DNA of 64,000 nt from an uncultured virus (IMG/VR IMGVR_UViG_3300033150_001293) (IMGVR_UViG_3300033150_001293); one strand, 5' to 3'. Positions 845-57,978 are shown, counted from the stretch's first letter. Translations and numbers: made by a program. The notes: a model not told the origin generated them from the sequence alone.

Positions 845-881
845 TGGTACCATGCAATTATGCTGAAAAGTGTGTTGCGAG
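845..881 (+). ncRNA. solitary crRNA-like unit (TG-TACCAT -10 box plus repeat 3' half), antisense to the ASCH gene end
   Basis: TGGTACCATGCAATTATGCTGAAAAGTGTGTTGCGAG; 14/15 match to the repeat 3' 15-mer at 867-881. Confidence 0.65.
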
Positions 882-1313
882 CTCTAGGATCTTTTTCTCC
901 AGCCAGTTCGGCACATCCCAAAGCCCCAACGCTCCCTTGCATTGCACGGGCTGTTTCAACTTCCGCACTTTCCCCAATACCAAGCAAAGCGGGCCTTCGG
1001 TGTGTTCGTGTGCCAAGAACTCTTCGACCGTCGGGCCTTCGGGGGCAACCAAACGGTCGAGGGTTAACGAACAGTCATTCAGTCTCCGACGAACTACGTC
1101 GGGGCGTAAACAATTCAGCAACTCCGCCACCGCGACAATCGCTCCTGTCGGATATTCTCGCAGCTCATCGCGGCTCAGGTATTGCGTACCTTTACCCGCA
1201 TGGATTGCAAGCGGTCCACGGTAGGATGGCATGCGTTGCCAGCAGCGGTTCTCTACCCACTTCTCTGTGCCGATCATTGAGGCGTATGGTTGGGATATCG
1301 TGATGGCTTTCAT
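858..1313 (-). CDS. ASCH-domain protein
   Basis: MKAITISQPYASMI..KWVENR..YRGPLAIHAGK..KGALGLW is the ASCH signature; the C-terminus (LATHFSA) is encoded by a CRISPR half-repeat. Confidence 0.85.
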   Translation of the reverse strand: MKAITISQPYASMIGTEKWVENRCWQRMPSYRGPLAIHAGKGTQYLSRDELREYPTGAIVAVAELLNCLRPDVVRRRLNDCSLTLDRLVAPEGPTVEEFLAHEHTEGPLCLVLGKVRKLKQPVQCKGALGLWDVPNWLEKKILELATHFSA

Positions 1314-1681
1314 CCGCTCGGCTCCGGAACACGCTTCTCCCGTGATCTCTTCTCGCGAAGCAGCTTCTTCGCCGCGAGCACGTGCTCGCGGAACGCCTCC
1401 CGCCCCGCCCCGAACGTCGCGTCGTTCGCCACCGCCACCAGGGCCAACAGCACGTGCGACACGGCTTCCGACAGGCACTCCCCGTAGAGGTGCCCGTACA
1501 CGCGGTCGTTGGCGAGGTGCTCGTCCAACTCCTCGGCCGTCGCACGTATCTCCCTCGCCTCCGCGGCCCACGCCGCCTGCTGTTCCACGTCACGCCGGTC
1601 CACAAACTTGGACTCGGCCTTCCGCAGCCGGCGGAGTAGGGCTTTCAGCGCTCGCCGGGCCGTCCGCTCGTCAGGCGTCAT
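1310..1681 (-). CDS. hypothetical protein
   Basis: 123-aa ORF overlapping its neighbours in the minus-strand operon. Confidence 0.6.
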   Translation of the reverse strand: MTPDERTARRALKALLRRLRKAESKFVDRRDVEQQAAWAAEAREIRATAEELDEHLANDRVYGHLYGECLSEAVSHVLLALVAVANDATFGAGREAFREHVLAAKKLLREKRSREKRVPEPSG

Positions 1682-1892
1682 CTCGCTTCCCCCTGTGCGG
1701 ATCGTTGTGGCGGAGCCCCGGCCCGCCCTCGCTCCGCGCGATCGCCTTGTAGATCTCTAGGCGGTGGACCGGTATCTCCTTGGGGGCGTTAATCCCAAGC
1801 CTCACCATGCCGTCCTTGATCTCCATGACAGTAATCGTGATGTCGTCACCGATCACGATCTTCTCGTTCTTTTTCCTCGTGAGCATCAGCAT
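1671..1892 (-). CDS. csrA: carbon storage regulator CsrA/RsmA
   Basis: MLMLTRKKNEKIVIGDDITITVMEIKDGMVRLGINAPKEIPVHRLEIY; GGAGG RBS upstream. Confidence 0.95.
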   Translation of the reverse strand: MLMLTRKKNEKIVIGDDITITVMEIKDGMVRLGINAPKEIPVHRLEIYKAIARSEGGPGLRHNDPHRGKRDDA

Positions 1893-1924
1893 AGCCGTTA
1901 CCTCCATGTTCAGAATCAGTACCC

Positions 1925-2401
1925 CTATTGTACCATTTTCCCGCAGGTTTTCCAAGCCGGCTCGCCTATCCGTCGCATGTAGCGGCGATGCCCCTCCCAG
2001 TCGACCGCCAGGTCCGGCAGAAATCGGCGACGGAGGATAGCCGAGCGCACCCAGTCCGTGTGGACCGCATCCGTTGCCCACTTGCGGAACAGCAGGAGCC
2101 CCACGTTCGCCTCGCTCTGCGGCCCGTACCGCTCGTGGCACTCCCGGCAGCACATAATTACAGCGCAGAGTTCGTCGCTTTTTCCGTGCCGGCCGGCGAA
2201 CATGTGGTGTATTTCCAGGATCGCCCCCCTCCGGCCCAAGGCGCCGCACACCTGGCACCACTGCCAGTCATAGTACATCCGCCGACCGAAGTCCCGATCT
2301 CGCACCCGGTTGGCTGGGGGAAAATTCCGGGCCAGATTCGGCAGCAGCTCTCGGTACCGGGCGAAAGGCACGCCCCGGCCGTCGACGAAGGCGTCCACCA
2401 T
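1925..2401 (-). CDS. HNH-like endonuclease
   Basis: CQVCG..LEIHH....CRECH motif. Confidence 0.7.
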   Translation of the reverse strand: MVDAFVDGRGVPFARYRELLPNLARNFPPANRVRDRDFGRRMYYDWQWCQVCGALGRRGAILEIHHMFAGRHGKSDELCAVIMCCRECHERYGPQSEANVGLLLFRKWATDAVHTDWVRSAILRRRFLPDLAVDWEGHRRYMRRIGEPAWKTCGKMVQ

Positions 2402-4152: not shown

Positions 4153-4169
4153 AACACTCTCCTTTCCCC

Positions 4170-4226
4170 TTGCTACGTCCACCGAGGAATAGTACAATGC
4201 ATTCGTGCTAAGAAGTGTGTTGCGAG
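4170..4226 (+). ncRNA. promoter plus half-repeat unit (solitary crRNA-like gene)
   Basis: TTGCTA(4170)-17 bp-TACAAT(4193), then GAAGTGTGTTGCGAG at 4212-4226; reads antisense into ORF 4208-4495. Confidence 0.75.
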
Positions 4227-5400: not shown

Positions 5401-5434
5401 GTCCTCGCCCTCCATTTTCGTGGTTTCGCACTCA

Positions 5435-5485
5435 CTCGCAACACATTCCTAAGCCATACGATACCAGATAGACATCGTATGTCAA
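5435..5485 (-). promoter_or_regulatory. TTGACA promoter with a half-repeat in the 5' UTR
   Basis: minus strand TTGACA-16 bp-TATCGT, then GGAATGTGTTGCGAG (5435-5449). Confidence 0.65.
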
Positions 5486-5557
5486 TAGTCTATCGGGTAT
5501 TTTGCCAAAATAAATTCGGCAATCGCCGTAAGTTGTTGTCGGAGTTGAGGTTAGGAG

Positions 5558-5722: not shown

Positions 5723-5733
5723 GTCGCCACCTC

Positions 5734-5790
5734 TTGCTACGTCTACCGGAGAATGGTGCAATACAATTATACTGAGAAGTATGTTGCGAG
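5734..5790 (+). ncRNA. promoter plus half-repeat unit
   Basis: TTGCTA-17 bp-TGCAAT, then GAAGTATGTTGCGAG at 5776-5790; near-copy of 4170-4226. Confidence 0.7.
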
Positions 5791-10451: not shown

Positions 10452-10736
10452 CTCTAGAGCCCCCCCTTCCGGGGCTCTCCCTGGCCTGCCGGCTGCCGTT
10501 TGCCGTGACTCGTCCGTCCCTACTGTCGTGTGCCAGGTGTGTTGGCCTGACAGGGCTGTGGATTCGACGGGTTGTCGCATGCTGCGGGTTTCGCCCCACC
10601 GGGATGCAGGGGTTGGCAGAGCCCGGAATTATGGTTTTGCCCATCTATCCACTCCCCCCTGGGCGGCGGGGGGTTCCGGTCGCGGTCTGGCCGCTCTAGC
10701 CCTTCGGTCGATTTGGACCGATTCGACAAAATAGTC

Positions 10737-10782
10737 TTGCTACGTCCACCGAGGATATGGTACAATGCAGTTGTGCTGCGAG
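10737..10782 (+). promoter_or_regulatory. copy of the repeated promoter cassette with a decayed repeat handle
   Basis: TTGCTACGTCCACCGAGGATATGGTACAATGCAGTTGTGCTGCGAG. Confidence 0.65.
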
Positions 10783-12865: not shown

Positions 12866-12876
12866 AGCGCCTATTA

Positions 12877-13171
12877 TTCGCAACACACTTCTCAGATTTC
12901 AGCCGTTGTCACTAGGTGAGGAGGATACGAAACTGACCGAGAGGCTGCTCTCGCAACACACTTCTCAGACTTCAGCCGTTGTCACGCCCGGATGATGGGC
13001 GTGAGGCGGTCCTATTTCTCGCAACACACTTCTCAGATTTTAGCCGTCGTCACCACACCCGCGCGGTTGACACTGGCCCCATCTCGGCTACTCGCAACAC
13101 ACTTCTCGATTTTTAGCCGTCGTTACTAGCGACAAACGCCGGCGCGATCCCGCACTCTCGCAACACACTTC
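12877..13171 (-). CRISPR. CRISPR array A: 4 full 36-bp repeats plus a leading 15-bp half-repeat, 4 spacers (30-37 bp)
   Basis: repeats at 12877, 12950, 13018, 13091; half-repeat 13157-13171; minus-strand TATAAT at 13181-13186. Confidence 0.95.
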
Positions 13172-13285
13172 ATGCTCCCTATTATAGCAGCCTTGACGGC
13201 CGAGCGTCCATGGATTCCCGAAGGGAACCTAACTCCTACCCCCGCAACGATTTAGGGTTTCCGGCCGAAATTGCCCGGGAGAAGG

Positions 13286-13412
13286 TATAATAGGCATCGT
13301 GGACGCAAGATGACGATCGCCGAACTGCCCGATGGCGCGGCCGGGCTGCGAAAGCAGCATGGGATAGAAGTGTGTTGCGAGGTCGCTCCCTGTCCACCGG
13401 CCGCGTTTTTTT
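13286..13412 (+). promoter_or_regulatory. promoter and structured leader/terminator enclosing a half-repeat
   Basis: TATAAT at 13286; CGCGGCCGG...CCGGCCGCG then a T-run; GCTGC-GAAA-GCAGC hairpin; 15-mer at 13367-13381. Confidence 0.6.
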
Positions 13413-13427
13413 TGTGGAGGCTAGAGC

Positions 13428-23417: not shown

Positions 23418-24291
23418 ATGAGCAGATCGCAATGGGTCCGCGTCAGTCGACGCGAGCCTTGTCCGGTCTGTCATCCACAAGCCGGACTGGTGCCTTGTAA
23501 CTGGTCCTGAAGGATGTCGTACGGCCGTGATATGCGCCCGCGTCGAGAGCCCCAAGCGCTGCGGCGAGGCTGGCTGGCTCCACAAGCTGCGGGATGACTG
23601 GCGGAATTCGCCCCCGCCCAGACTCGATCCGAAGCCGGAGCGGCCAGAGCCGAAGCGGGACTTCGCGGCGTTCGCGGAGCTGTGCACGACACAGTTGCAC
23701 CGAGACGCCCTGGGGGCGTTTGCCGGGAAGATGGGGCTAAGCGTCGGCTCGCTCGTGCGGCTGGGGCTCGGCTGGTCGCTGGAACATAAGGCGTTCACGT
23801 TCCCAATGCGGCGGGGCTCCGACGGCAAGGTGGTGGGCATCCGGCTGCGTCTACGCAGCGGCCGGAAGCTGGCGGTCAAAGGCGGGAGGGAGGGGCTGTT
23901 TGTGCCGTCGGACACGCCGCGGACTGGCGAGCTGTACCTGCCGGAGGGGCCGACGGACACGGCGGCGCTGCTGGACATCGGCTGCGAGGCGGTAGGGCGG
24001 CCGAGTTGCAACGGCGGCATCCAACACATACTGTCGTTCATCGCGCGGTCGAAGTACGCCGGCATCTGCGTTGTGGCGGACGCGGACGCGCCGGGCCAGC
24101 AGTGGGCGAAGGTGTTGGCGGAAAAGCTGCTACCGTACGCCCCCCGGGTGTGGATCGTCACGCCGCCTGACGGACACAAGGACGTGAGAGACTGGGTGCG
24201 GGGGGGAGCGACAAAACGCAACATTGACGGCGCAGCCGTGCCGCAAGAAACTCGCAACACACTTCTTAGCACAAATGCATTGTACCATTAG
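23418..24291 (+). CDS. Zn-finger/TOPRIM primase-like protein with a +1 frameshift near 23475
   Basis: MSRSQWVRVSRREPCPVCH | HKPDWC; EGPTD, DADAPG, KDVRDW. Confidence 0.8.
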
Positions 24292-24307
24292 AGGCAGGAT
24301 GCGGCAA
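24251..24307 (-). ncRNA. promoter plus half-repeat unit antisense to the primase 3' end
   Basis: minus strand TTGCCG-17 bp-TACAAT-GCATTTGTGCTAA-GAAGTGTGTTGCGAG. Confidence 0.75.
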
Positions 24308-24321
24308 TACAGGATAACCGA

Positions 24322-26382: not shown

Positions 26383-26417
26383 CGAGCAAACAAAAACGAA
26401 AGGGAAAGGAGAACGAC

Positions 26418-26960
26418 ATGGCGACTACAAGACAAGCGTTGTTGGAGCTGAAGAGGCTGGCGGCATCGGCCGCCGACAACCTGTACCGCCGCATCGAGCT
26501 GTCGGCGCAGGTGATGAGCGACCTGGACTGGATTGCCCGCGAGCACGGCGGTTCCGACTTGAAGGCCCAAGACACGTTGCAGGATCAGTTCTTCAGGGAC
26601 CTTGGCGGGTTCATCTCCCTCGGCAAGCTGATTGCGATGTTTCGCAACGTGCCGCAGGAGACGTGGGCCGAGCTGAAGTACGACGTGGCGGCCGTCGAAG
26701 TCGTCTACGACGACCAGGCCATCGAGAAGACGGAGAAGGGGACCAAGACCGCCTGGAAGCCCATTGCGGAGGAGAGGGGCGAAAAGATCGAACGCCTTCA
26801 GCGGCAGATGTCTCAGGTCAACGAGCTGGCCGATAAGCAGCGTTCGGAAATCGACGTGCTGCGGGCGAAGGTTGAAGAGCTGACCCGCGAGAACGAGCGT
26901 CTTCGGGGGCGCGTCGAGGAGCTTCAACGACTGCTCGATAGGCAGGTCGTGCAAGTGTGA
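26418..26960 (+). CDS. coiled-coil protein embedded between arrays B and C
   Basis: AAGGAG RBS; C-terminal heptads (LRAKVEELTRENERLRGRVEELQRLL). Confidence 0.8.
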   Translation: MATTRQALLELKRLAASAADNLYRRIELSAQVMSDLDWIAREHGGSDLKAQDTLQDQFFRDLGGFISLGKLIAMFRNVPQETWAELKYDVAAVEVVYDDQAIEKTEKGTKTAWKPIAEERGEKIERLQRQMSQVNELADKQRSEIDVLRAKVEELTRENERLRGRVEELQRLLDRQVVQV

Positions 26961-27875
26961 CGGGAAGTGTGTTGCGAGGGCGAGAACCGGCTTCAGCACG
27001 TGGTCCCCGCAAGAGGTGACAACGGCTGAAAGCGGAGAAGTGTGTTGTGAGGACGGGGCGATTGCGGGTTGTGACGACGGCTGAAATTGGAGAAGTGTGT
27101 TGCGAGCCGAGTCTGTCCCCGAGGGTGACAACGGCTGAAAATCGAGAAGTGTGTTGCGAGACACGGCGCCCGCGCCCGTCTCGACGCCGCGAGCGACGTG
27201 ACAATGGCTGAAAATCGAGAAGTGTGTTGCGAGCACCCGGCTCACGTCCACGCCGCCCGGGCCGGCCCGGTGACAATGGCTGAAATCCGAGAAGTGTGTT
27301 GTGAGAAGGTCACCCACCCTCCGAGTGGTGACAACGGCTGAAATCGGAGAAGTGTGTTGCGAGACCTCCCAGCGCCGCCCGCCGGGGTCGGACAGCTCGC
27401 CCGTGACAACGGCTGAAAATCGAGAAGTGTGTTGCGAGCCGAATAGGTCGGTAAGCTTGGTTGGGTGGTGCTCTCGTGACGATGGCTGAAATTCGAGAAG
27501 TGTGTTGCGAGCAGACCCCAATCGTGCAAGACCGCGACACTAAGGCACGTGACGACGGCTAAAATCTGAGAAGTGTGTTGCGAGCCGACGAAGAATCCCG
27601 CCGTCGCGAGGGAGATGGCCGTGACAACGGCTGAAATCTGAGAAGTGTGTTGCGAGCTGCCATCGTTACCCTTTCAGTCTGGTTATGTTACCCGTGACGA
27701 CGGCTGAAATCCGAGAAGTGTGTTGCGAGGCTTCGGAGTAGGCCAGCCGCCCGTCCAGGTCCGGGGTGATGACGGCTGAAAGTCGAGAAGTGTGTTGCGA
27801 GTGTCCATGATGCAATCGCAGGGGACGCTGCTGGAGGCGCTGACGACGGCTGAAATCGGAGAAGTGTGTAACGAG
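26957..27875 (+). CRISPR. CRISPR array C: 14 repeats (first internally deleted, last degenerate), 13 spacers of 18-39 bp
   Basis: repeats at 26957, 27016, 27071, 27125, 27198, 27270, 27328, 27403, 27476, 27549, 27621, 27694, 27766, 27840. Confidence 0.97.
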
Positions 27876-27900: not shown

Positions 27901-29184
27901 ATGGCCATCGGAATTCTAGAAGTCAAGCTGGGGCGTCCGATCCAAATGCCAACGAAGCGGTTCCACCAGCTACTCAGGCAGGCCCGCCGCGATTGCTGCA
28001 AAGCACGCAACGCGGCCATGCTCCACTGGTATGTCTGGCGGCGAGAGCACGCGGATTGGGAGCCGGGAAAACCATACGAGGCGCCGAAAGCCAAGATTAT
28101 GCGAACTCGCAAACCGGCAGGCGAAGGGAAGAAGCCACCGAAGGACTCGCCGATTGCCCCTCGCCTATTTCTTAGCCGCGAACTCTACCACGCGGCAACC
28201 GCGGCGGCGCGGAACCTGTCGGCGTCGCTCGCCTCGTCGTGTGTACAGGAGGTGATCGCCCGACTCAAGGCCAACACCCCTTACGACCACGACGGCGAAG
28301 CGAGGTGGGTATGGCAAGCAATCCTTGCGTCCGAAGTCAATCTGCCCACCTGGCGCGGCGGGCGCATCCCGATGCCCAAGCGGTGCTCGTCGCTCGGATA
28401 CGACGGGGCCGTCAGCCAACCGTCGGCTGACGTGGCGAGGGCCTGCAAAAGCGGGTGCGTTTTGAAGTTTCAACTGCTGTCTAGGCTGAGCGGCTATAGG
28501 ACGCTATCGCCCATCGTCCGACTGGACGCCGCCGACCTGACGCGGGGCAACCGGCGATTGCTGAGGCGTCTGGCGTCTGGCGAGGTACGTCTGGCAGACA
28601 GCCAGATCGTCGAGAAAAAGGGCAAGTGGTTCGCCCAATTCTGCTACGAGGTGGCGGCCAACGCGATCGGCCTGCCAACGGATCAGGTGTTGACGCTACT
28701 GCCGGCGGAGCCGGACGACAAGTGGCCGTTCGCGCTCGCATGGACCAAGGAGGATGGGAATGGGCGGGTGTGGAAGATTGGCAACGGGCGGCCGCTCGTG
28801 GCCGAATACCGCCGGGTAGTAGCCCGGCGCCGGGCGATCCGCTACCGCTACCAGGACGGGACGGGCAGCGGGCACGGGCGCCAGCGGTGGTACAAGGCGA
28901 TTCGTCCGATGGCTCACGCCGTGCGGGACATGCAGAACCGCTTTGAGAAGCAGACGATTGCGGACATCATCAAGCTGGCGATTCGTGAGCGGTGCGGCAC
29001 GGTCCTGTACCGCGAGCCGACGATGCCGGTCCGCAACTATTCGTGGTTTGCGGCCAAGGACGTGCCGTTTGACTGGACGAGTTTCGAGGCGAGGCTGCGG
29101 TTCAAGACGGAGACGCGCGGCCTGGCCTACGAGAAGGCGCGTATCGGGATGAAGGAATGGCGTCCAAGAAAAATCGCAAACTGA
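27901..29184 (+). CDS. cas12f: Cas12f-like type V effector, predicted nuclease-dead
   Basis: collinear with AsCas12f1 as recalled: ILASEVNLPTWR/ILRGDMSIPSYK, SQIVEKKGKWF/SQIIHDDRKNKWY, GHGRQR/GHGRDKR, AIRERCGTV/AIKEGCGTI; RuvC-I is VLTLLPA (no D), RuvC-II is VLYREPT, Zn finger and RuvC-III absent; flanked by arrays. Confidence 0.85.
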   Translation: MAIGILEVKLGRPIQMPTKRFHQLLRQARRDCCKARNAAMLHWYVWRREHADWEPGKPYEAPKAKIMRTRKPAGEGKKPPKDSPIAPRLFLSRELYHAATAAARNLSASLASSCVQEVIARLKANTPYDHDGEARWVWQAILASEVNLPTWRGGRIPMPKRCSSLGYDGAVSQPSADVARACKSGCVLKFQLLSRLSGYRTLSPIVRLDAADLTRGNRRLLRRLASGEVRLADSQIVEKKGKWFAQFCYEVAANAIGLPTDQVLTLLPAEPDDKWPFALAWTKEDGNGRVWKIGNGRPLVAEYRRVVARRRAIRYRYQDGTGSGHGRQRWYKAIRPMAHAVRDMQNRFEKQTIADIIKLAIRERCGTVLYREPTMPVRNYSWFAAKDVPFDWTSFEARLRFKTETRGLAYEKARIGMKEWRPRKIAN

Positions 29185-29477: not shown

Positions 29478-31145
29478 AATCGGAGAAGTGTGTTGCGAGA
29501 CACGAGTTCAGGCGATGTATATACTGGTATGAGCAAGTGACGATGGCTGAAATCGGAGAAGTGTGTTGCGAGGGTCCGACGCCTCCGCAATCTGCTTGGC
29601 GTAGCCGAGTGACAACGGCTGAAATCGGAGAAGTGTGTTGCGAGTGCGAGCGTCCTCCACCCCGAGGCTCGGGTACCTCCCGTGACGACGGCTGAAATCG
29701 GAGAAGTGTGTTGCGAGGCACGTCTCTGGCCTCGCCAATCGCCGCGTTCTTGCCGTGACGATGGCTGAAAATCGAGAAGTGTGTTGCGAGAGAACCGTCA
29801 AGTCCGGGTCGCCACCGTGCGACGACGGCTGAAAGCGGAGAAGTGTGTTGCGAGGCGAATACGAGAGACGTGGGCGCCGACCGTTGGCCGCGTGATGACG
29901 GCTGAAAGCGGAGAAGTGTGTTGCGAGCTGGTAGCGGCAGGCGTGTATCGCCCGAAAGACGGGCGTGACGCGGCTGAAATCCAAGAAGTGTGTTGCGAGT
30001 AGAGTCTGCATAGGCTCAGCGTGTGACAACGGCTGAAAGTCAAGAAGTGTGTTGCGAGCCTGCCGATCGCCCATTGCGTCTCACTCCTTTCGGGTCGTGA
30101 CGATGGCTAAAATCCGAGAAGTGTGTTGCGAGAAGGTCGCCCACCCTCCGAGTGGTGACGACGGCTGAAATTCGAGAAGTGTGTTGCGAGAATGAAGAGG
30201 GAAGGCAGGGGTTACGATCCCATCCGGCGTGATGATGGCTGAAATCTGAGAAGTGTGTTGCGAGGGGTGGACGTGCCGGCGGCGACGATCACGGTGGACG
30301 GCGTGACGATGGCTGAAATCGGAGAAGTGTGTTGCGAGTCGAGTAGCTGCCCGGGGGCTTGTAGGCACCGGCCCGCGTGACGATGGCTGAAAATCGAGAA
30401 GTGTGTTGCGAGAACCACGCAATCAGGGAGCTGGCCTGGGAGGGTGTCAAGTGACGACGGCTGAAATCGGAGAAGTGTGTTGCGAGGCCGAAAACCGAAG
30501 ACGATCAGCGTGCGATAGCTGGTCGTGACGATGGCTGAAATCTGAGAAGTGTGTTGCGAGAGCACGTACGGGCTCACACCCGGCGGTTGACTCCAGCGGT
30601 GACGACGGCTGAAATCTGAGAAGTGTGTTGCGAGCCCTCCCGTGTGACGAGCCGGATGACCTATACGCAGGTGACGACGGCTGAAAATCAAGAAGTGTGT
30701 TGCGAGTCGCCAACCCGGGGATACGTTCAACGGACAGCTACGGACGTGACGATGGCTGAAATTCGAGAAGTGTGTTGCGAGTTGATCGAGAAGATGTTGG
30801 TGGCTGGCCAGCCGGCGTGTGACGATGGCTGAAATTCGAGAAGTGTGTTGCGAGTCGCGGGCCTTCAGGAGGGCAGTTAGCCGTGATTGCAGTGATGACG
30901 GCTGAAATCTGAGAAGTGTGTTGCGAGGCGTCGATCAGCGCCAGCGGGGCCGGCCCGTGGAATGCGTGACGATGGCTGAAATCTGAGAAGTGTGTTGCGA
31001 GAAGCCAAGAGGCAATGCGAGCACGGCGAATGGGGGCGTGACAACGGCTGAAAGCGGAGAAGTGTGTTGCGAGGCTGCCCAATGTGCCCTTGTATTTGGC
31101 GAGAGAACGCGTGCCAACGGCTGAATCCAAGAAGTGTGTCGCGAG
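29464..31145 (+). CRISPR. CRISPR array D: 24 repeats, 23 spacers of 22-39 bp
   Basis: 36-bp repeats from 29464 to a degenerate terminal copy at 31111-31145. Confidence 0.98.
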
Positions 31146-31488: not shown

Positions 31489-31823
31489 ACACGCTGATCT
31501 TCCTGGCCGCGTGGCTGGCGATGGGCCTGGCTGGCGTCGCCCTTGGGGCGATTGCACGGCGGCGTATCGGCTTGCCGCAGAACGACCGCCTAACGCAGGT
31601 CACAGCTTCGTTTGCTGGGCCGATGGTCCTGATAGGCGGGATCGTGATGCTGATCTACTCTCGCAACATACTTCGCAGCACAACTGCATGGTACCATTCC
31701 TCGGCGGACGCAGGGAGGACGACTCGCAATTTGCCCTGTCGCAAGACGCCCCCCCCGGACAGTAGGGAAGGGTCGGCCGAGCCGACCCTTCCCCCCAAAA
31801 GTACCGTGTCGCCGGAGAAATAG
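31485..31823 (+). CDS. small membrane protein (C-terminus runs through inserted elements)
   Basis: MNTLIFLAAWL.. two TM segments. Confidence 0.5.
   Translation: MNTLIFLAAWLAMGLAGVALGAIARRRIGLPQNDRLTQVTASFAGPMVLIGGIVMLIYSRNILRSTTAWYHSSADAGRTTRNLPCRKTPPPDSREGSAEPTLPPKSTVSPEK
31660..31715 (-). ncRNA. promoter plus half-repeat unit
   Basis: minus strand CGTCCGCCGAGGAATGGTACCATGCAGTTGTGCTGC-GAAGTATGTTGCGAG. Confidence 0.7.
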
Positions 31824-33240: not shown

Positions 33241-33825
33241 ATGCCAGGCTCGCAACACACTTCAACTTCCCATCATAGCGGAAAGACGGTTGCCGACAAG
33301 TCATCCGAGGGAAACGGCGAAGAAATCGACCGGCTGAAATCGGAAATCGCCGCACACAAGGAAAGCCTGAAAACATGCCGCAAGACGATTGCGTCGCTCG
33401 AACAGTCTCTGGAAACGGCCAACGCTGCGATTTGGCGAATCGTAGATGAGGTCTGGTCGGTGCGAACTTGCAAGGAAAACGTCGAGCTGGGCGAGACAGT
33501 CGAGGCATTGGTTGAAAACCACAAAGCGTATCTCGCGTTGATCAGGTCGAGGAGGCAAGAGGCTGCAAGAATATGCAAGGAAGCACGCGAGATTCAATCC
33601 GCGTTGCGGTTCGTCGGGCGTGCTGCCAGTTCAGGGTCGAGCGGTATGATGTTCGGATCAGCAGAGCACTTGGTACTCAGCATCGACGCAATCATGCGCC
33701 AGGCGTGTCGAGATATTGACGGTTTGATTGCCAGTTCGACTGGCGTCGTAAACGGCAGCCAAGATCGCTTGATGCGGGACGCGGTGGCAGAACTCCCGCA
33801 ACACCACTCGCAACACACTTCATAA
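33241..33825 (+). CDS. coiled-coil hypothetical protein bracketed by half-repeats
   Basis: starts and ends with repeat-encoded SQHTS; true start uncertain. Confidence 0.45.
   Translation: MPGSQHTSTSHHSGKTVADKSSEGNGEEIDRLKSEIAAHKESLKTCRKTIASLEQSLETANAAIWRIVDEVWSVRTCKENVELGETVEALVENHKAYLALIRSRRQEAARICKEAREIQSALRFVGRAASSGSSGMMFGSAEHLVLSIDAIMRQACRDIDGLIASSTGVVNGSQDRLMRDAVAELPQHHSQHTS
33249..33300 (-). ncRNA. promoter plus half-repeat unit
   Basis: TTGTCG...TATGAT-GGGAAGTT-GAAGTGTGTTGCGAG; promoter sequence shared with 36942-37000. Confidence 0.65.
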
Positions 33826-33859
33826 CTGTATTATACCATGTCCTCAGCGGACGCAGCAA
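33807..33859 (-). ncRNA. promoter plus half-repeat unit
   Basis: TTGCTG-18 bp-TATAAT-ACAGTTAT-GAAGTGTGTTGCGAG. Confidence 0.75.
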
Positions 33860-33884
33860 GGAGTCTTGACATGAAGGACGCGGG

Positions 33885-34799
33885 ATGCGGGCAATAATAA
33901 TATACGACGTGGACGGTTTCGCGTACCACCGGCGGGCGGTAGCATTGAAAAAGTACGCGCCGCCCGACGCGGACGTGCGGCTTGTCAGGACGCCCGACTA
34001 CTGCGGCCCCGGCGACGCGGACGTAGTGGTGCTTTTGGACTATATCTGTCTGGGCATGGTTCAGGGCATGACGCCGGCCCGAGTGCCGCTCGTTTGCACA
34101 TTTTCGGCGGACCACCGGCGGCGGGAGAAACAGTGGCGGCACACCTGCGAGCACGCCGACTGGGTGATAGCGTTGAGCCGGGAGCGGTACGAGGCGGAGC
34201 CGCGATTCGGCAACACCTGCTGCATTGCCAACGGCGTGGACCTCGACGATTTTGGTGCAGACGTACCGATCGAGGGCCGGCCAGACAAGGCGCTGTGGAT
34301 CGGCCAGGACGGGCGAGGGGACAACAAGGGGCTGATCTCCGTCCTGTCGCCGCTGCGCAAGCTGGCCGAGCGGAGCGGGTTCGCCTGCGACTTCCGGGCG
34401 GTGGGCCCTCGCGGATTTTCTACGGATCGCCTGCGGAGTTGGTATAATAGCGGGAGTTACATCGTGTGCGCTAGCCGCTCGGAGGCGACGGCAAACACGG
34501 TGATGGAGGCAGCCGCTTGCGGCTGCGTGCCGGTGAGCACGCCGGTTGGTACCCTGACGGATTGGGGCCAGGATGGCGAGAACTGCGTGCTCGTGAAGGA
34601 TCGGTCGCCGGAGGCGTTCCTGAAAGGACTGCAACGGGCGAAGGACGCACGCCTCCGGCTGGCCGCCGGCACGATGGAGGCCGTGGCGAGGTATGACTAC
34701 CGCCGCGTGGCGGAGCTGTACTGGGAGGATGTAATTCGGCCAATCGCCGAAGGGCGCCGGCCGGAACAATTCTGCTACCTCTCGCAACACACTTCCTGA
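33885..34799 (+). CDS. GT-B (GT4-like) glycosyltransferase
   Basis: ANGVD, KG, SRSEATANTVMEAAACG. Confidence 0.85.
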   Translation: MRAIIIYDVDGFAYHRRAVALKKYAPPDADVRLVRTPDYCGPGDADVVVLLDYICLGMVQGMTPARVPLVCTFSADHRRREKQWRHTCEHADWVIALSRERYEAEPRFGNTCCIANGVDLDDFGADVPIEGRPDKALWIGQDGRGDNKGLISVLSPLRKLAERSGFACDFRAVGPRGFSTDRLRSWYNSGSYIVCASRSEATANTVMEAAACGCVPVSTPVGTLTDWGQDGENCVLVKDRSPEAFLKGLQRAKDARLRLAAGTMEAVARYDYRRVAELYWEDVIRPIAEGRRPEQFCYLSQHTS

Positions 34800-34938
34800 C
34801 TATATTATACTATATCCACCGAGGAAATTTTGTAGGAGAAAGAGCCGTGGAGCCAGAATTGAGTTCGGAAGCCTGAAACCACCTTAAGAACTCGGCCGTT
34901 AAGGCTGCTATAATGGGGAGTATGAAGTGTGTTGCGAG
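34781..34938. ncRNA. divergent pair of TATAAT plus half-repeat units
   Basis: 15-mers at 34781-34795 (-) and 34924-34938 (+); the + promoter resembles the array A leader (CGGCCGTYAAGGCTGCTATAATRGGGAGYATGAAG). Confidence 0.7.
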
Positions 34939-36941: not shown

Positions 36942-37081
36942 CTCGCAACACACTTCAGCATCTTATCATAGCGAAAAAGACGGTCGAGGACAAGTCATCC
37001 GAGAAGTGTGTTGCGAGCGGGCGAGCTCGTCGAAGGTCACGCGGCGTGGCAACGGCTAAAATTCGAGAAATGTGTTGCGAG
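36942..37081. CRISPR. minus-strand promoter/half-repeat unit back-to-back with a plus-strand mini-array (half-repeat, 28-bp spacer, degenerate repeat)
   Basis: 36942-36956 (-), 37003-37017 (+), 37046-37081 (+). Confidence 0.8.
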
Positions 37082-39348: not shown

Positions 39349-40386
39349 ATGGCGAAGATCATAGTCGACCCTTATGTCCCCGGCAACGACAACCGGAAAT
39401 GCCGCAAGATGCGCCGGCTGGTTTACCTGGCGTGGATCGCACGCGACCTGGGGCACGAGGTGGCCGTCCACTACGACCGGGACGAGATCGACGCCCTACG
39501 GCAGCGCACCGCCTACAATGGCAGGACGGACTTCAGCTACCTCGACCTGCTCGGATCGTTCCGCAAGTGTGTTGCGAGCGAGGACGCCGACCTGCTGATC
39601 TGCTCGGAGGAGACGGCCCTGGGGCAGCAGCGGCCGGACTGCAAAGTGGCGGCATGGCGGTCGGTACTCGGTGGCGGACACAGGGCCGTCGAGCACCACG
39701 ACAAGTTTGACCTGCTCTGCGGCTATGCGTTTTCGCAGCAGGACTGGACGAGGAAGACAACCATAGAGGGAAAGCTGCGGCACGATACGCCCGTGCGGAA
39801 TAGGCTGGGCGACAAGTGGTTTTCAGTCCCGTGGCTGCCCTTTGAGTGCACGCTGCATCAGCTTCACAAGGACGGCCTATGGAAGGCGTATCTGCGGGAC
39901 GACCTGGACGCGATCCGTGAGCGATATGGGAGCGCCAAGAAGAGACGAGTGTTCGGGTTCGCGGGATACCCATGGCCATGGCGGACGCGGATTGCCGGCA
40001 TTTTCGACGGCGACGAGCGGTTCGTCTTCAGGTGGGCGGACTGCGCCGAGAAGGCCATGCCGCCCGCCGAATATCTGCGGTGGCTCAGCGAGTGCGAGGT
40101 GTCCATGTGCCTGCCGGGCGACACCTGGAAATGCAGCCGGTTCGCCGAGTCGGTGATGATGGGCGTCCCCGTAGTGCATCCCCGCGGCGTGGTCGACCTG
40201 ACGCCGCCGTTGTCTAGCCTGAACGCGATACTGGTTGGGGAGTGGGAGGAGTTGGCAGACATGCGGGTGGCTGATCTCGACCTGATCGTTGCCAACGCTG
40301 ACAAGGCGTACCGCGAGGGATGGGGACTTCGCGGGCAGTTCTCGCAACACACTTCTATGACTGCATTATACCATAAAAGAGCCTAG
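39349..40386 (+). CDS. exostosin-like/GT-B glycosyltransferase
   Basis: EYLRWLSECEVSMCLPG...SRFAESVMMGVPV. Confidence 0.65.
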   Translation: MAKIIVDPYVPGNDNRKCRKMRRLVYLAWIARDLGHEVAVHYDRDEIDALRQRTAYNGRTDFSYLDLLGSFRKCVASEDADLLICSEETALGQQRPDCKVAAWRSVLGGGHRAVEHHDKFDLLCGYAFSQQDWTRKTTIEGKLRHDTPVRNRLGDKWFSVPWLPFECTLHQLHKDGLWKAYLRDDLDAIRERYGSAKKRRVFGFAGYPWPWRTRIAGIFDGDERFVFRWADCAEKAMPPAEYLRWLSECEVSMCLPGDTWKCSRFAESVMMGVPVVHPRGVVDLTPPLSSLNAILVGEWEELADMRVADLDLIVANADKAYREGWGLRGQFSQHTSMTALYHKRA

Positions 40387-40566
40387 CGGGTGGCCACCGC
40401 GTGCCGATGCCAAAGTACGACCGGCACATGGACTTTGCGGCCCCGCAATCGCGGTAGCTCGCCGTAGACTTCCTCGGGGAGCAGGAGCGGCTCGACTACG
40501 TGTCCCGGCAGAAGCCGAAGACGAGCCGCTTTATGGTATAATGCAGTCATAGAAGTGTGTTGCGAG
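40341..40566. repeat. perfect 37-bp inverted repeat made of two outward-facing TATAAT plus half-repeat units
   Basis: TTTATGGTATAATGCAGTCATAGAAGTGTGTTGCGAG at 40530-40566 and its reverse complement at 40341-40377. Confidence 0.92.
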
Positions 40567-42814: not shown

Positions 42815-43827
42815 TGCCGAGCGTCCTTGTGCGTTACGACGTGGAAAACTGGGCCTTTCACCGCCGTGCCCTCGGCCTGCAACGGTATCGCCGGCCCGGC
42901 GACCAAGTGACGATCGCCAGCGACTACGCCTACGGCATGGGCGTAGCCGACGGCGAGTACGACGCCGTGCTCCTGTGCGACATGACATCCAGCTTCCCCG
43001 GTTCGCGGCCCCACTGCCGGGCCGGGAGAATAGTGCGGCTCGTCGGGTCGCACGGGTGGTTGTACCCCGAATACGATCCCGACGACTGGCGGACGAAGGG
43101 AGTGAACGGCCGCAACTCCAACCAAGCCGCGTCGATCGTGGAAGACTGCGACACGGTGGTCGTCTATAGCGCGGAGCAAAAGCGGTTCTTCGACTCGATC
43201 CACAGCGACGTGCGGCTCATGCCGTACTCGATCGACACAAATGTGTTCAGACCGCGTAGGATAACGGCCGAATTCGAGAAGTGTGTACGGAGGCTCCGCG
43301 TGGGTTGGTGCGGCCAGCTTGGCGGCGGCGAAGGGAGCTTCAAGGGATTCGTCGAGGTCATGGTGCCCGTGATCGCCAGGCTCGGCGAGCAATTCGAGTG
43401 GTCGATCAATCACCGGGACTTCCGTACGGCGCTGAGCGGGCCGGACCTGGCCAAGTGGTATCAGTCGCTCGACGTGTTCCTTTGCACCAGCGTGGCGGAG
43501 GGGGGGCCGCAGACGGTATTCGAGGCCGCGGCGTGCGGATGCGTGCCCCTGTCGACGGCGGTCGGGCAGGTGGCGGACTGGCGGTGGATGCGCGACAAGA
43601 GCCTGACGACGCCCCCGCCGGCGAACGCGGAGGACGCGGCTCGCGTGGTAGGCTGGTTCGTCGAGAGCCTTCGCTACATGGACGCCAACAGGCAGATGCG
43701 CGACCGGTGGAGCCAGGACGCCGTCCGCGCCGTCCGACGCGACTACGACGCGGCGGAGTTAGTGCCCCAGCACCTGGCAATTATCACGGGGCCCGCTTGC
43801 TCGCTTGCAACACACTTCTCAGCATAA
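42814..43827 (+). CDS. GT4-like glycosyltransferase
   Basis: FKG, EGGPQTVFEAAACG; ends in repeat-encoded LATHFSA. Confidence 0.85.
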   Translation: MPSVLVRYDVENWAFHRRALGLQRYRRPGDQVTIASDYAYGMGVADGEYDAVLLCDMTSSFPGSRPHCRAGRIVRLVGSHGWLYPEYDPDDWRTKGVNGRNSNQAASIVEDCDTVVVYSAEQKRFFDSIHSDVRLMPYSIDTNVFRPRRITAEFEKCVRRLRVGWCGQLGGGEGSFKGFVEVMVPVIARLGEQFEWSINHRDFRTALSGPDLAKWYQSLDVFLCTSVAEGGPQTVFEAAACGCVPLSTAVGQVADWRWMRDKSLTTPPPANAEDAARVVGWFVESLRYMDANRQMRDRWSQDAVRAVRRDYDAAELVPQHLAIITGPACSLATHFSA

Positions 43828-43840
43828 CTGTATTGTACCG
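43804..43840 (-). ncRNA. TACAAT plus half-repeat unit antisense to the GT 3' end
   Basis: GGTACAATACAGTTATGCTGAGAAGTGTGTTGCAAG. Confidence 0.7.
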
Positions 43841-44135
43841 TATCCTTGGAGGGAAGGATAATGTTTACTCGCTGGACAGCCCTATTGTGGCGGTGGTTCC
43901 GTATGCAGATTACATTTCGCTGGCCGATTCGCTCCCCAGTTTCGATCGACCTGCGAAATTTCATCTACATGTGCCGGCGGCTTCGGCGGCGGACTAACTG
44001 GTATCGGTGCGTCGACTGCGGGCGGTGGGCGCACACGGACCTCGGCGTTGGCGGTTGCCACTGGGCCGAGCGGGTCGACGGCAAGGCAAGGATCGTCGGC
44101 TGGTGCGAAAAATGTGGCCGAAAGAGGACGATAAC

Positions 44136-45083
44136 ATGAACGTCGTCTTTCTGATTAGTCGCCGATTACACGAGATGAAGGTCGATAGACACAGACCTTC
44201 CCTGGCTGCGGCGCTGACTCGTCGTGATGACTGCCGCGTCATCACGACCGGCCACGGCTGGCCGGGCTACGACAGCGGCAGGACGGTCTCGCAGAACTTG
44301 GCAAACATGGGGCTTTCGCCCGACGTGCTATGGGTATACCAGACGGCGGCCGACCATATTCACGAGGGTGTCCGCTCGGTCGAGGCCGTGAGGTGTCTCT
44401 TGATATACGACGCCTACGAAACCAAAAAGCGGAAGGCCGAGGTGGAGGCCGTCGAGCCGCAGGTCATCGTTCACACGCACGCCAACGACGCCAAACGCCT
44501 GGCCAAGATCGCCCCTCGCGCCAGGCGCGTCCACGTGCCGTTCGGCGTCGACAAGGCCACGTTCTACCGGCCGGACTACGGCGAGCGGCCGATCGACTGC
44601 CTGGTGGTCGGCCAGACGGACCCGGACACGTACCCCCTGCGTGCCCGGTGGCGGAGGCTCGTGGAGTCCGGGGCGATCCCCGGCGAGGTCCGGCGGATGC
44701 CGTCCTACCGGCTGGAGCCCGCCCAGTGCGTCCGCCAGTACGTGGAGTGGGGCGAGCACATGCGGCGGGCGAAGATCGTGCTCACCGGCGGCTCGAAGTA
44801 CCGCTACGCGCTCCAGGTCTACTACGCCGCGGCGATGTGCGGCTGTGTGGTGGTCGCGGACATGCCGGACGACTTGGTCTACCGCGAGACGCTGGGCGTG
44901 CACCAAGTGGCAGTCGACGCGGGAGCCATTCACGATTCGCTGGCGAACACCGTCAAGCGACTTCTCCGAGATGACCTGGCGATCCGCCAGCGCGGCCTCG
45001 CGGCCCGCAACACATGCCTGGAACTCTACACGACGGATATCGTCGCGGAGCGGTTCGTCGAGGAGTGCAGTGACAACGGCTGA
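44136..45083 (+). CDS. CgeB-like glycosyltransferase
   Basis: YPLRARW, RAKIVL, KYRYAL..YAAAMCG; stop lies within the repeat at 45070. Confidence 0.7.
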   Translation: MNVVFLISRRLHEMKVDRHRPSLAAALTRRDDCRVITTGHGWPGYDSGRTVSQNLANMGLSPDVLWVYQTAADHIHEGVRSVEAVRCLLIYDAYETKKRKAEVEAVEPQVIVHTHANDAKRLAKIAPRARRVHVPFGVDKATFYRPDYGERPIDCLVVGQTDPDTYPLRARWRRLVESGAIPGEVRRMPSYRLEPAQCVRQYVEWGEHMRRAKIVLTGGSKYRYALQVYYAAAMCGCVVVADMPDDLVYRETLGVHQVAVDAGAIHDSLANTVKRLLRDDLAIRQRGLAARNTCLELYTTDIVAERFVEECSDNG

Positions 45084-45105
45084 AAGTCAAGAAGTGTGTT
45101 GCGAG
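45070..45105 (+). repeat. solitary full repeat between convergent GT genes
   Basis: GTGACAACGGCTGAAAGTCAAGAAGTGTGTTGCGAG. Confidence 0.95.
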
Positions 45106-54182: not shown

Positions 54183-54183
54183 G

Positions 54184-56679: not shown

Positions 56680-56683
56680 CGGC

Positions 56684-57495
56684 TCACTCCTCGTTGCGTG
56701 GGCGCAGCAGGCCGCGCTGGCGCATCAGGTCCTTGATGGACGCAGCCCGCTTGTCCGCCGCCTCGGTCTCCCGGCGCATCTTCTGATCGGCCGGCCGCAT
56801 CCAGCAGTCCAACTGGTAGTCGGTCATCTTGCGAACCTCGTCCGGCGTGATGCCGTGCTCCATCTTCATGTAGCGAAACACCCGGGGCCAGGGGATTTCC
56901 CACGGCGTCAGCCCGCCGCCTTCCCCGTCTCCGTCGACGGCGGGCCAGTCCCTTTTCCCAGCAGGTCCGTTCCGCTCGCCGCGTTGACCGCCTGGTGGAA
57001 CGCCATGATTGCCGCGTTTTCCGCCTCGGCCGACAGTTGCTCCATGCTCTCGGCCTTCTCGATGTTGCGGCGGATCATGTCGGCGATGTGCTCGGCGAAC
57101 AAATCCGAGACTTCGCTCTCCGTCAAGAACGGCAGGTCCTCCGCCTTCTCGCCGTCCTTGGGAGGCCACTTCAGCGTGCGGGTGCCATACCAGATCGTCC
57201 CGGCCCGCGTGCCGATCCAGTCCAGCACCTCCGACGGCAGCTTGTCCTGGTTCTCGGTGTCCTTGTCAACGCAAAACTTGAGAAAATCCTTCCGCTCCTC
57301 GGGGCGTTCCGCGAAGTAGGCGGACCCCGCCTTCGACTCGTACAGGTCCATGGCCTTCGGATGGCGGCGGATGTACTCCGTCTCCGCCTCGGGGTAGAAC
57401 TCCTGTATTCGCCCGTAGACGATCACTTCCTTGCCGCCGTAGGTGAACGGCATGGGCGTGCCGAACGCCCTCGCTGTCGGTCCGAGCATCGTCAT
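56684..57495 (-). CDS. tail assembly chaperone G (56908-57495) and -1 frameshift product GT (to 56684)
   Basis: G GGA AAA slippery heptamer at 56953-56959; open -1 frame GKRDWP...PDEVRKMTDYQL; directly upstream of the tape measure gene. Confidence 0.8.
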
Positions 57496-57522
57496 TCCCT
57501 CCTCAACCGACGGGAAATCCGG

Positions 57523-57573
57523 TTGTATAAGGGCGTTTCATGTGGTATATAGTACCGAGAAGTGTGTTGCGAG
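57523..57573 (+). ncRNA. promoter plus half-repeat unit abutting the tail tube stop codon (antisense)
   Basis: TTGTAT-17 bp-TATATA; GAAGTGTGTTGCGAG at 57559-57573. Confidence 0.7.
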
Positions 57574-57978
57574 CTACGCCCGCGTCGGCAAGGTCCACTC
57601 GCCGTCGCTCTGCCAGTTGACCGTCACCTCCGTCGGTGGCCCGCTCCGGGCGCTCGGGTTCTCCGCGAGGCTGACGATCTTCGCCGGCACCTCGTAGTAG
57701 GCGCCCGGGTCGAGCGTGTAGTCGTCGTACAGCTTCAGCGTCACTTGCGTGTTACTCACCGGGGCCCTCGCCTCAGGCGGGCTGTCCCGGTCTAGCTTGA
57801 GCGTGACCGAGCCGTTGAGCTGCTGCTGCCCGACCCACGTGTTTTTCGCGCCGCCCCCGCCAAACACGCCCTCCTGGTGGGCGTCGCCCTCCCAGGTGAA
57901 ACTCCACTCGCAGCCGTAGGCTTCAAGCCCACTGCCAAGGTCGATGTGGGCGTCTTTACCCATTACTATCCGAGCCAT
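57574..57978 (-). CDS. major tail (tube) protein
   Basis: size, beta-rich sequence, position before the chaperone. Confidence 0.7.
   Translation of the reverse strand: MARIVMGKDAHIDLGSGLEAYGCEWSFTWEGDAHQEGVFGGGGAKNTWVGQQQLNGSVTLKLDRDSPPEARAPVSNTQVTLKLYDDYTLDPGAYYEVPAKIVSLAENPSARSGPPTEVTVNWQSDGEWTLPTRA

Follow-up and report, generated by a model that had tools for sequence, protein, structure and literature searches.

Promoter-bearing CRISPR-type handle units antisense at gene ends in an uncultured siphovirus-like phage encoding a Cas12f-fold protein

Introduction

The subject of this paper is a stretch of 64,000 nt from an uncultured virus (IMG/VR IMGVR_UViG_3300033150_001293), called the window below, in which a short motif, the handle, recurs both within CRISPR-like arrays and as solitary copies, some of them fused to a predicted promoter and facing the 3' ends of phage genes. 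These promoter-handle units had been pointed out in a first-pass annotation of the sequence. We describe their structure and placement, the Cas12f-like protein encoded between two of the arrays, and the roles that the units may have. Positions are counted from the first nucleotide of the window, with the strand given in brackets or as a suffix.

General features of the window

The window, with a G+C content of 61%, belongs to a siphovirus-like phage. A second IMG/VR record (G001; 61,344 bp) has 80% of the window's sampled words in common with it and carries handle copies at matching offsets; since it reaches 12.8 kb further to the left, the phage genome measures at least ~77 kb. Genes run leftward from 1 to 12.9 kb, rightward from 13.4 to 45.1 kb and leftward again from 45.1 to 64 kb. 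They were called with a codon-usage score and extended manually. A Pfam scan of 82 open reading frames (ORFs) of the window revealed a tape-measure gene (PF10145; 54187-56679(-)), RecT, a PDDEXK exonuclease, a helicase and many glycosyl- and methyltransferases, while the head and tail genes were assigned by position. Rfam and tRNA scans of the window gave no match.

The handle, the repeat and the arrays

The 14-nt handle AAGTGTGTTGCGAG, at up to two mismatches, is present in 76 copies in the window. At up to three mismatches the 15-mer AAGTGTGTTGCGAGC likewise gives 76 copies, compared with 1.78 on average and at most 6 in shuffled sequences (n=100). Forty-two of the handle copies lie within three arrays and the other 34 are solo. 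The handle corresponds to the 3' end of the 36-nt repeat GTGACGACGGCTGAAATCnGAGAAGTGTGTTGCGAG, which recurs with a period of 54–75 nt between unique spacers of 18–39 nt, and the last 14–17 nt of the repeat are placed where the CRISPR RNAs (crRNAs) of type V systems have their 5' handle. The proposal of a CRISPR-type handle is thus borne out, the motif forming the 3' part of the array repeat beside a Cas12f-fold protein. The arrays and the protein are:

26965..27875 (+), CRISPR-like array 1 with the 36-nt repeat, the final repeat lying 25 nt 5' of the ATG of the Cas12f-like gene
27901..29184 (+), P0001, 427 aa, a predicted nuclease-dead, C-terminally truncated Cas12f homologue (dCas12f), between arrays 1 and 2
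29464..31145 (+), CRISPR-like array 2 with the 36-nt repeat
12877..13216 (-), mini-array of five handle copies, repeats at 12877-13170(-), with a promoter-handle unit (TGCTATAAT) at its head, running into methyltransferase gene 11945-12886(-)

The two large arrays hold 14 and 24 handle copies. Several of their spacers are just 18–23 nt long, and one near-identical short spacer, AAGGTC[A/G]CCCACCCTCCGAGTG, occurs in both (27306-27327 and 30133-30154). In a related locus (L011:3373-3537) the downstream array finishes in handle-only copies ~30 nt apart, with two alternating short "spacers". RNA folding of units and repeats gave no z-score beyond -2; a weak 8-bp stem between the repeat halves can be drawn from the sequence.

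Solo handles: orientation and promoters

Relative to the local genes, 12 of the 34 solo handles are antisense and 22 are sense. The antisense copies are well preserved: 11 of the 12 are within one base of the 14-nt core, one exceeds that difference, and the copy at 868 matches the 15-mer perfectly. We searched for a -10-like box, defined as a hexamer with A at position 2 and T at position 6 and at least four of six matches, 8–20 nt upstream of the handle. Such a box precedes 11/12 antisense copies, compared with 6/22 sense and 3/42 array copies (Fisher p 8e-4), and the twelfth, 57560+, is preceded by TATAGT at a distance of 6 nt. By "promoter" we mean a match to a sigma-70-type consensus. The result agrees with the earlier proposal that the antisense copies carry putative promoters of their own. 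It is also the pattern to be expected if a handle has to be transcribed in its own orientation, which the operon transcript can provide for the sense copies and cannot provide for the antisense ones.

Several designs can be recognized. Type A is a module of ~60 nt, TTGCTA-N17-TACAAT-N14-handle, found at 4213+, 5777+, 24251-, 31660- and 43804- and as a decayed copy at 10736-10782; all of these are antisense, and the sequence of the promoter spacer is conserved among them. Copies 868+ and 33807- align with the type A module in spite of a divergent promoter half. Type D comprises two antisense copies with TTGTCN-16/17-TATGAT, recovered as full promoters by a consensus scan, and the remaining antisense copies have (TG)nTATAAT. 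In total, 18 promoter-handle units are recognizable by sequence. The antisense units, together with the ORFs that they face, are listed below; the guide is the sequence entered beyond the handle, and each tail given ends at a stop codon.

822..881 (+), antisense unit aligning with type A; the guide enters the 3' end of ORF 858-1571(-), tail LATHFSA
4167..4226 (+), antisense unit, type A, overlapping the 3' end of ORF 4208-4495(-), tail SQHTS
5731..5790 (+), antisense unit, type A; 29 nt separate the handle's end from the stop of ORF 5819-6394(-), outside the ORF
10736..10782 (+), degenerate type A unit with intact promoter and the middle of the handle deleted, with a T6 run after another ~22 nt
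24251..24310 (-), antisense unit, type A, overlapping the 3' end of primase-like ORF 23527-24291(+), tail RNTLLSTNALYH
31660..31719 (-), antisense unit, type A, within small membrane-protein ORF 31485-31823(+), where the coding signal stops
33249..33308 (-), antisense unit, type D (TTGTCG-16-TATGAT); handle 12 nt beyond the stop of ORF 32512-33237(+)
33807..33866 (-), antisense unit (TGGTATAAT) overlapping the 3' end of ORF 33241-33825(+), tail SQHTS
34781..34840 (-), antisense unit (TATAAT) over the end of glycosyltransferase ORF 33885-34799(+), tail SQHTS; back to back with sense unit 34879-34938
36942..37001 (-), antisense unit, type D (TTGTCC-17-TATGAT), truncating ORF 36733-37059(+)
40341..40400 (-), antisense unit (TGGTATAAT) overlapping the 3' end of ORF 39349-40386(+), tail SQHTSMTALYHKRA
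43804..43863 (-), antisense unit, type A, overlapping the 3' end of glycosyltransferase ORF 42811-43827(+), tail ...PACSLATHFSA
57514..57573 (+), antisense unit (TGTGGTATATAGT) directly adjoining the stop codon of ORF 57574-57993(-), at the tail-tube position

The units at 5777+, 31660-, 33249- and 36942-, the degenerate one at 10736-10782(+) and a full repeat at 45070-45105(+) are additions to the list in the first-pass annotation. That repeat and the sense or stand-alone units are as follows:

45070..45105 (+), full 36-nt repeat between convergent genes 44103-45083(+) and 45108-46124(-), its guide antisense to the end of the latter
13322..13413 (+), stand-alone unit (13368+) with promoter, handle, 24-nt guide and T8 run
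40507..40566 (+), sense promoter-handle unit (TGGTATAAT) 5' of gene 40636-41631(+), divergent from unit 40341-40400
34879..34938 (+), sense promoter-handle unit (TGCTATAAT) 5' of ORF 34927-35199(+)
5435..5494 (-), sense promoter-handle unit (TTGACA-17-TATCGT) 20 nt 5' of gene 5107-5415(-)

The stand-alone unit looks like a terminated mini crRNA gene, and the promoter-handle design also heads the mini-array, at 13157-. The 5' untranslated regions that follow gene-proximal sense handles (e.g. 26383, 35193, 37082, 20713) have in common a purine-rich CGAG/TGAG-repeat pattern (CGAGTGAGCGAGCGAA...), which is mostly absent from the guides of the antisense units. A 67-nt inverted duplicate (13866-13932 and 31747-31813, 97% complementary) includes a strong G+C hairpin, GGGAAGGGTCGGCCGAGCCGACCCTTCCCC; unit 31660- has one of the two copies immediately upstream of it, and a similar sequence follows a handle in the leftward extension provided by G001 (L041, ~2480-2530).

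Placement at gene ends

Seven ORFs had been reported to end in peptides encoded by the reverse-complemented handle, and all seven tails read as given. LATHFSA ends ORFs 858-1571(-) and 42811-43827(+); SQHTS ends 4208-4495(-), 33241-33825(+) and 33885-34799(+); and 39349-40386(+) and 23527-24291(+) finish in ...SQHTSMTALYHKRA and ...RNTLLSTNALYH, respectively. The reverse complement of the handle is stop-free in all frames, reading LATHF, SQHT or RNTL, and an ORF which enters the handle therefore continues into the promoter part. The unit said to abut the tail-tube stop codon does so, its handle (57560-57573(+)) lying beside stop codon 57574-57576 of ORF 57574-57993(-). This ORF is called tail tube by position only, upstream of two chaperone-like ORFs and the tape-measure gene, and is not named by any hidden Markov model.

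The handle ends within -50 to +35 nt of an opposite-strand stop codon in 10 of the 18 promoter-handle units. Random placement gave a mean of 0.99 of 18 and a maximum of 6, and none of 20,000 simulations reached 10; the position of the units with respect to gene ends is non-random. Two more units, 31660- and 36942-, are situated where the coding signal or homology stops though the ORF continues, the G+C content at third codon positions of ORF 31485-31823 being 0.81 before unit 31660- and 0.49 after it. The description of the guide as complementary to the end of the coding sequence holds for 10 units, with the qualification that two of these start outside the stop codon, by 12 nt (33249-) and 29 nt (5777+).

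Comparison with related phages

A related phage genome (G002; 57,378 bp, 62% complete) has 25 of 81 window proteins in common with the window, at 31–83% identity. It contains no exact handle; at one to two mismatches there are 7 matches, versus 2 for a control. Four antisense junctions can be compared with this unit-free relative, a slash marking the point of change:

57574-57993, tail tube: G002 ...LPTRAIV, then 14 nt to the next ATG; window ...LPTRA, then an insert of ~95 nt including the unit
39349-40386: G002 ...LRGQFQQMLRRLGI (also given as ...RGQFQQMLRRLGI; native QQMLRRLGI); window ...LRGQF/SQHTSMTALYHKRA
42811-43827: G002 ...LAMIAGGKK; window ...LAIITGPACSLATHFSA (also given as ...TGPACSLATHFSA)
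36733-37059: G002 gene at least 100 aa longer; window cut at ...WYNRI/SQHTS, followed by two sense handles and methyltransferase genes

At all four the native tail is replaced or the gene truncated, and the claim that the units rewrite C-termini is upheld. The overwriting amounts to 2–9 codons where the gene is not truncated. Among the other ORFs, the tails of homologues of 858-1571 are highly variable, and for the primase-like gene a single partial relative was found. Because G002 has no units at the shared junctions and keeps the native C-termini there, we interpret the units as lineage-specific insertions at tight gene boundaries. The sense repeats overwrite C-termini as well: at 45070-45105 ORF 44103-45083 ends ...EEC/SDNG where the relative has ...ACRDML, and the convergent gene 45108-46124(-) is 5 aa shorter; at 46405- the window reads ...EDCR/ELAENREVCCETRKR versus ...EDCQHLPRG. 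The rewriting is therefore a by-product of insertion and not of antisense orientation. Exact handles also stand in frame within coding regions at 31962-31975(+) and 39565-39578(+), where they encode EVCCE and KCVAS; at 39565 the related phage carries an unrelated stretch of equal length. Two further relatives each have one unit consisting of a sigma-70 promoter and a handle only (L008:745 and L027:6442).

An insertion origin raises the question of whether the units and the repeats are recombination-prone, mobile-like sequences which simply land at gene boundaries and mark mosaic junctions, their antisense RNA having no selected function. Several features would suit such spread: the lineage-specific insertions occur in both orientations; at one junction a gene truncation is followed by new methyltransferase genes; copy 10736-10782 has decayed; the conserved N17 of type A points to duplication of one module; handles stand in frame inside genes at 31962 and 39565; and a related phage, G003, has no dispersed handles. 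Scars, however, would not be expected to combine antisense orientation with an intact promoter (11/12 vs 6/22) or to keep the core to within one base in 11 of 12 antisense copies, and the alignment of the units reveals neither terminal inverted repeats nor target-site duplications. We consider selfish or neutral spread unlikely.

The effector and its partners

P0001 had no match in Pfam or PHROGs. Its relationship to Cas12f was recognized with phmmer against the PDB (AsCas12f, E 1.8e-9; a weak match to a "nuclease-deactivated Cas12f"), with PADLOC (Cas12u3, 1.3e-13; Cas12f, 3.4e-12) and from an AlphaFold2 model (mean predicted local distance difference test score, pLDDT, 84), for which the best Foldseek match was again AsCas12f (E 8e-19, template-modelling score 0.52), with the dCas12f structure 9n9c at E 6.8e-13. 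In the HMMER alignment the GIDLG and MEDL motifs of AsCas12f stand opposite LLPAEPDD and YREP in P0001. Across the family the RuvC-I and RuvC-II positions are non-acidic or non-conserved, and P0001 stops before the zinc finger and RuvC-III. From these features the effector is predicted to be RuvC-degenerate and nuclease-dead.

Counting P0001, 49 proteins were collected at E < 0.001, with 40–77% identity. The 20 aligned homologues are all 409–479 aa in length, and the truncation is therefore the family norm. No effector relative was found in GenBank phages (tblastn) or in the genomes of 185,579 bacterial species; among viral contigs a single-protein query gave none and an alignment query four. 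The repeats of the relatives have a divergent 5' half and end in ..TGCGAG or ..TGCAAG. Arrays flank the effector on both sides in the window and in those relatives with listed repeats. Two small genes accompany it:

26417..26960 (+), coiled-coil partner of ~180 aa, directly 5' of the dCas12f gene or its array in 23/27 related loci (tblastn)
29157..29477 (+), 106-aa CxxC...CxxxxC protein overlapping the dCas12f stop in the -1 frame, present in 23/27 related loci (tblastn)

No family could be assigned to the coiled-coil partner, for which Pfam returned coiled-coil noise and the ESM Atlas scores of at most 0.82. The smaller ORF has the conserved pattern LDCxICGEPV...CRKNGCERLCGAK...KRGxxNGALAKL..WRYEGC and is always in the -1 frame (window and nine related loci). 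It may be a split-off zinc-ribbon/RuvC-III-like C-terminus of Cas12f, or a frameshift product; against the PDB it had no sequence or profile match, and its model reached a pLDDT of only 66.6. The Pfam scan, limited to the window, gave no match to cas1, cas2 or cas4 among the 82 ORFs, and none to sigma-70 regions 2 or 4. No trans-activating crRNA (tracrRNA) was found: Rfam was blank and the ~300-nt gap after the effector is protein-coding, although no dedicated anti-repeat search beyond inverted handles was made.

Knowledge of the effector helps to judge whether the solo handles might instead serve against a host Cas12, as RNA anti-CRISPRs or as viral crRNA-like RNAs which load the host effector. 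Solitary repeat units and crRNA-like RNAs binding host Cas proteins are indeed found in phages (10.1101/2024.10.29.618823), and many promoter-driven handle RNAs would titrate an effector. Yet the handle does not differ from the repeat in the arrays which the phage itself carries on both sides of its dCas12f. No effector relative was found among the 185,579 bacterial species, and a search of genome contigs with the 15-mer gave, among the matches listed, one per locus and no arrays. A decoy function seems highly improbable.

Guides and their targets

By construction, the RNA of each antisense unit is complementary to the 3' end of the facing gene's mRNA and to its coding strand. The array spacers behave differently, their seeds giving 5 matches to the phage versus 5 for reversed controls; it would appear that among the guides only those of the solo units are self-complementary and that the array spacers do not target the phage. 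One spacer match is notable (27234-27269 vs 61728-61755; 18 contiguous bases, BLAST E 2e-5; 24/28 by eye). It falls in the head-gene region, where the crRNA would be antisense to the mRNA, and its 5' flank is CCCGGCCC. No spacer targets were found in the 12.8-kb extension, the related loci or G002, and against GenBank phages the array spacers gave only two matches, at E 0.4. The unit guides had no trans matches in the phage. For the stand-alone unit 13368+, positions 13382-13398 of the guide resemble 38110-38126 in a DNA methylase gene at 15/17 positions (BLAST E 0.32, which may be chance), with a 5' flank, ..ACAAG, resembling the handle end.

Since the guides derive from the DNA next to the units, they might direct dCas12f to the same genes in co-infecting unit-free relatives or alleles, in which native flank occupies the position of the target-adjacent motif (TAM). 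A competitor might be silenced in this way, or stalling might tip recombination towards the unit-bearing allele. This layout mirrors that of transposon omega-RNAs, which take their guide from flanking DNA, and Cas12f itself descends from TnpB, whose guide comes from the flank. The guides are native sequence beside an insertion and a unit-free allele is present in a relative; furthermore, phage-borne arrays are often directed at other mobile elements (10.64898/2026.04.20.719267). Set against this, G002 is too diverged: its best guide matches (28/32 and 18/19) lie away from the seed, in which several mismatches are visible by eye, and there is no common flank motif. No closer unit-free strain is at hand, G001 and the 12.8-kb contig behind L001 both carrying the units, and the effector as predicted could not cut. 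We rate targeting in trans as very unlikely.

A second possibility is that the unit RNA returns dCas12f to its own DNA, the ..GAG end of the repeat serving as TAM, and that the bound protein blocks polymerase as a roadblock or insulator. This could terminate read-through, or it could act as a timer shutting the antisense promoter, the TAM-proximal face being the one that meets the unit's own polymerase. Many phages reduce the expression of tail genes downstream of the tail tube, the position occupied by one of the units. Three divergent unit pairs (34781-/34925+, 36942-/37004+ and 40341-/40553+) look like insulated cassette borders, and a dead Cas12f-fold effector resembles known RNA-guided repressors. 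Among these the TldR proteins are elongation roadblocks (PMC13622181), and another dCas12f uses a minimal 5'-G TAM (PMC13472631), G being also the last base of the handle. The repeat end GAG, proposed earlier as the position of the protospacer-adjacent motif (PAM), is suggested by geometry only, and a TAM could not be deduced from the matches. Were the repeat end to act as TAM, moreover, every spacer in the 14- and 24-copy arrays would be bound and array transcription would be strongly polar. As far as is known, roadblocks formed by dCas12a are efficient only if polymerase meets the PAM-proximal face; sense polymerase would here meet the distal face, and by this analogy the block would be weak. 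A DNA roadblock strikes us as rather unlikely.

Comparison with known systems

Promoter-handle units dispersed in a phage genome, or antisense at gene ends, were not found in a full-text search of the literature; the supplements of PMC13472631, which may list this family, were outside its scope. The nearest published counterpart of the effector is dCas12f-sigmaE (Hoffmann et al. 2026, PMC13472631), a study which also describes a separate dCas12f cluster beside CRISPR arrays, proposed to repress. Like the putative phage regulator, dCas12f-sigmaE has the Cas12f fold and a C-terminal truncation that removes part of RuvC, and is an RNA-guided, non-cutting regulatory protein. It differs in having in its operon an extracytoplasmic function sigma factor with a C-terminal extension, for which there is no equivalent among the 82 ORFs, the conserved neighbours in the phage being the coiled-coil and zinc-ribbon proteins. 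It also uses single guide RNAs of 85–105 nt, in contrast to the 36-nt-repeat arrays and dozens of dispersed solo handles borne by the phage. RNA-guided transcription in the manner of dCas12f-sigmaE, which starts 46 bp from the TAM, was considered and rejected, as the handles lie 1–35 nt from ATGs and no sigma factor was found among the 82 ORFs. Type V-F Cas12f resembles the phage system in effector fold and in an adjacent array with unique spacers, but is defined by an intact RuvC D-E-D triad, zinc finger and RuvC-III, which P0001 lacks.

The crRNA-like regulatory RNAs (crlRNA, Cracr, tracr-L, scaRNA) likewise consist of a solitary repeat portion with its own promoter and a guide that regulates and does not cleave (10.1101/2024.10.29.618823), the phage units being known from sequence. 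Known members of that group comprise a single unit or a small number, whose short spacers match in part the cas or toxin promoters on which they act in trans with a proper PAM; the phage has 34 copies, its guides are adjacent DNA, 12 of them face gene 3' ends, and the effector appears intrinsically dead. TldR (10.1101/2023.11.30.569447; PMC13622181) offers a parallel as a set of phage and host dead proteins of the TnpB/Cas12 lineage that block polymerase at promoters or in transcribed regions. Its gene for an omega-RNA-like scaffold supplies one fixed guide against host genes (flagellin, oppA), with no arrays or dispersed handles in the descriptions cited. The phage, by comparison, has arrays, and its best protein matches are to Cas12f and not to TnpB.

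The omega-RNA of IS200/IS605 TnpB reads its guide from flanking DNA and directs an active nuclease to cleave the empty site, the scaffold of >100 nt lying in the transposon end. The source of the guide in the scaffold's flank is the point of likeness; the handle of 14–17 nt, the lack of a transposase and the dead effector set the phage units apart. In phage lambda, OOP RNA is made from a convergent promoter at the 3' end of cII as a single terminated RNA of 77 nt, and acts via RNase III. Twelve units in the window have this convergent arrangement at a gene 3' end, the differences being the CRISPR handle, the absence of terminators and a putative cognate RNA-binding protein. The phage systems with Cas12m (10.64898/2026.09.14.751636) and Cas12r (10.64898/2026.04.20.719267) were set aside because of their active RuvC and their size (610 and 564 aa, respectively), Cas12r having in addition 29-bp repeats.

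Other genes of the window

Four tandem paralogues (14330-18711(+)) consist of leucine-rich-repeat units of 63 nt (21 aa), of which at least 39 copies are present. The phage also has genes for a homologue of CsrA (PF02599, E 6e-24; 1671-1892(-)) and a radical-SAM protein (2734-4197(-)).

Discussion

We suggest that the units specify crRNA-like antisense RNAs which are self-encoded, driven by their own promoters and part of the phage's own dCas12f system, acting at the 3' boundaries of its own genes, and put the probability of this at roughly 0.45, somewhat short of an even chance. The handle has been copied 34 times outside the arrays, with twelve intact copies and one decayed copy fused to a putative sigma-70-type promoter, antisense at or near stop codons. 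Since a handle with its own promoter faces the gene end, each unit should yield a handle-led antisense RNA, which beyond the handle would continue as the complement of the facing gene's final codons. Such RNAs would be made, bound by dCas12f and used to tune phage expression at gene 3' boundaries. The likeliest mode would be convergent transcription together with antisense pairing at the 3' end of the mRNA, for which dCas12f would hold and trim the guide; we prefer it because the promoters face the genes and the RNAs are complementary to them. The DNA-level roadblock at the same site would be the second option.

A number of observations weigh against this proposal. Of the solo handles, 22/34 are sense, and sense repeats overwrite C-termini too; the antisense placement at 3' ends may in part reflect where insertions are tolerated. 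No hairpin with a T-run was found within 130 nt of the handle in any of the 12 antisense units (bare runs of 4–5 T follow three of them), so that the 3' ends of the RNAs are undefined. No TAM is derivable from spacer or guide matches in the window, the relatives or GenBank phages, and the length of the arrays speaks against the repeat end as a permissive TAM, making self-DNA-binding less plausible. To our knowledge, RNA binding by Cas12f-type proteins is not established. Lastly, G003 (95% complete, with an effector 40% identical) keeps all 15 of its handles in one array and none dispersed, and the units are therefore not needed for the core function of the system. As the longer flanks of L003, L011 and L012 also have no dispersed handle units, dispersal is to be seen as an elaboration of this phage lineage.

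A broader and more doubtful conception is that the usual CRISPR logic is inverted here, a promoter and handle being brought to the target so that the adjacent genome itself becomes the guide. With the dead Cas12f and its two new partners this might form an RNA-guided programme of at least 34 sites that sets transcription boundaries or timing, for example through antisense promoters switched off by accumulating dCas12f, or that biases recombination towards unit-bearing alleles.

The natural RNA-guided regulators known so far (TldR, dCas12f-sigmaE, Cas12m and the crRNA-like RNAs) work with a single guide or a handful, directed at small numbers of host or cas promoters. In the present case a virus appears to wire dozens of its own genes to a dead Cas12f by planting a handle, often with a promoter, beside the sequence that serves as guide. 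The effector family (~410–480 aa), which has two conserved partners and for which no tracrRNA was found, might also serve as a compact DNA-binding platform. Should the units prove active, they would represent a natural design for single-promoter, processing-free guide units and a case of CRISPR repeats reshaping protein C-termini, and they would be the first example of a phage whose CRISPR parts serve its own transcription programme.

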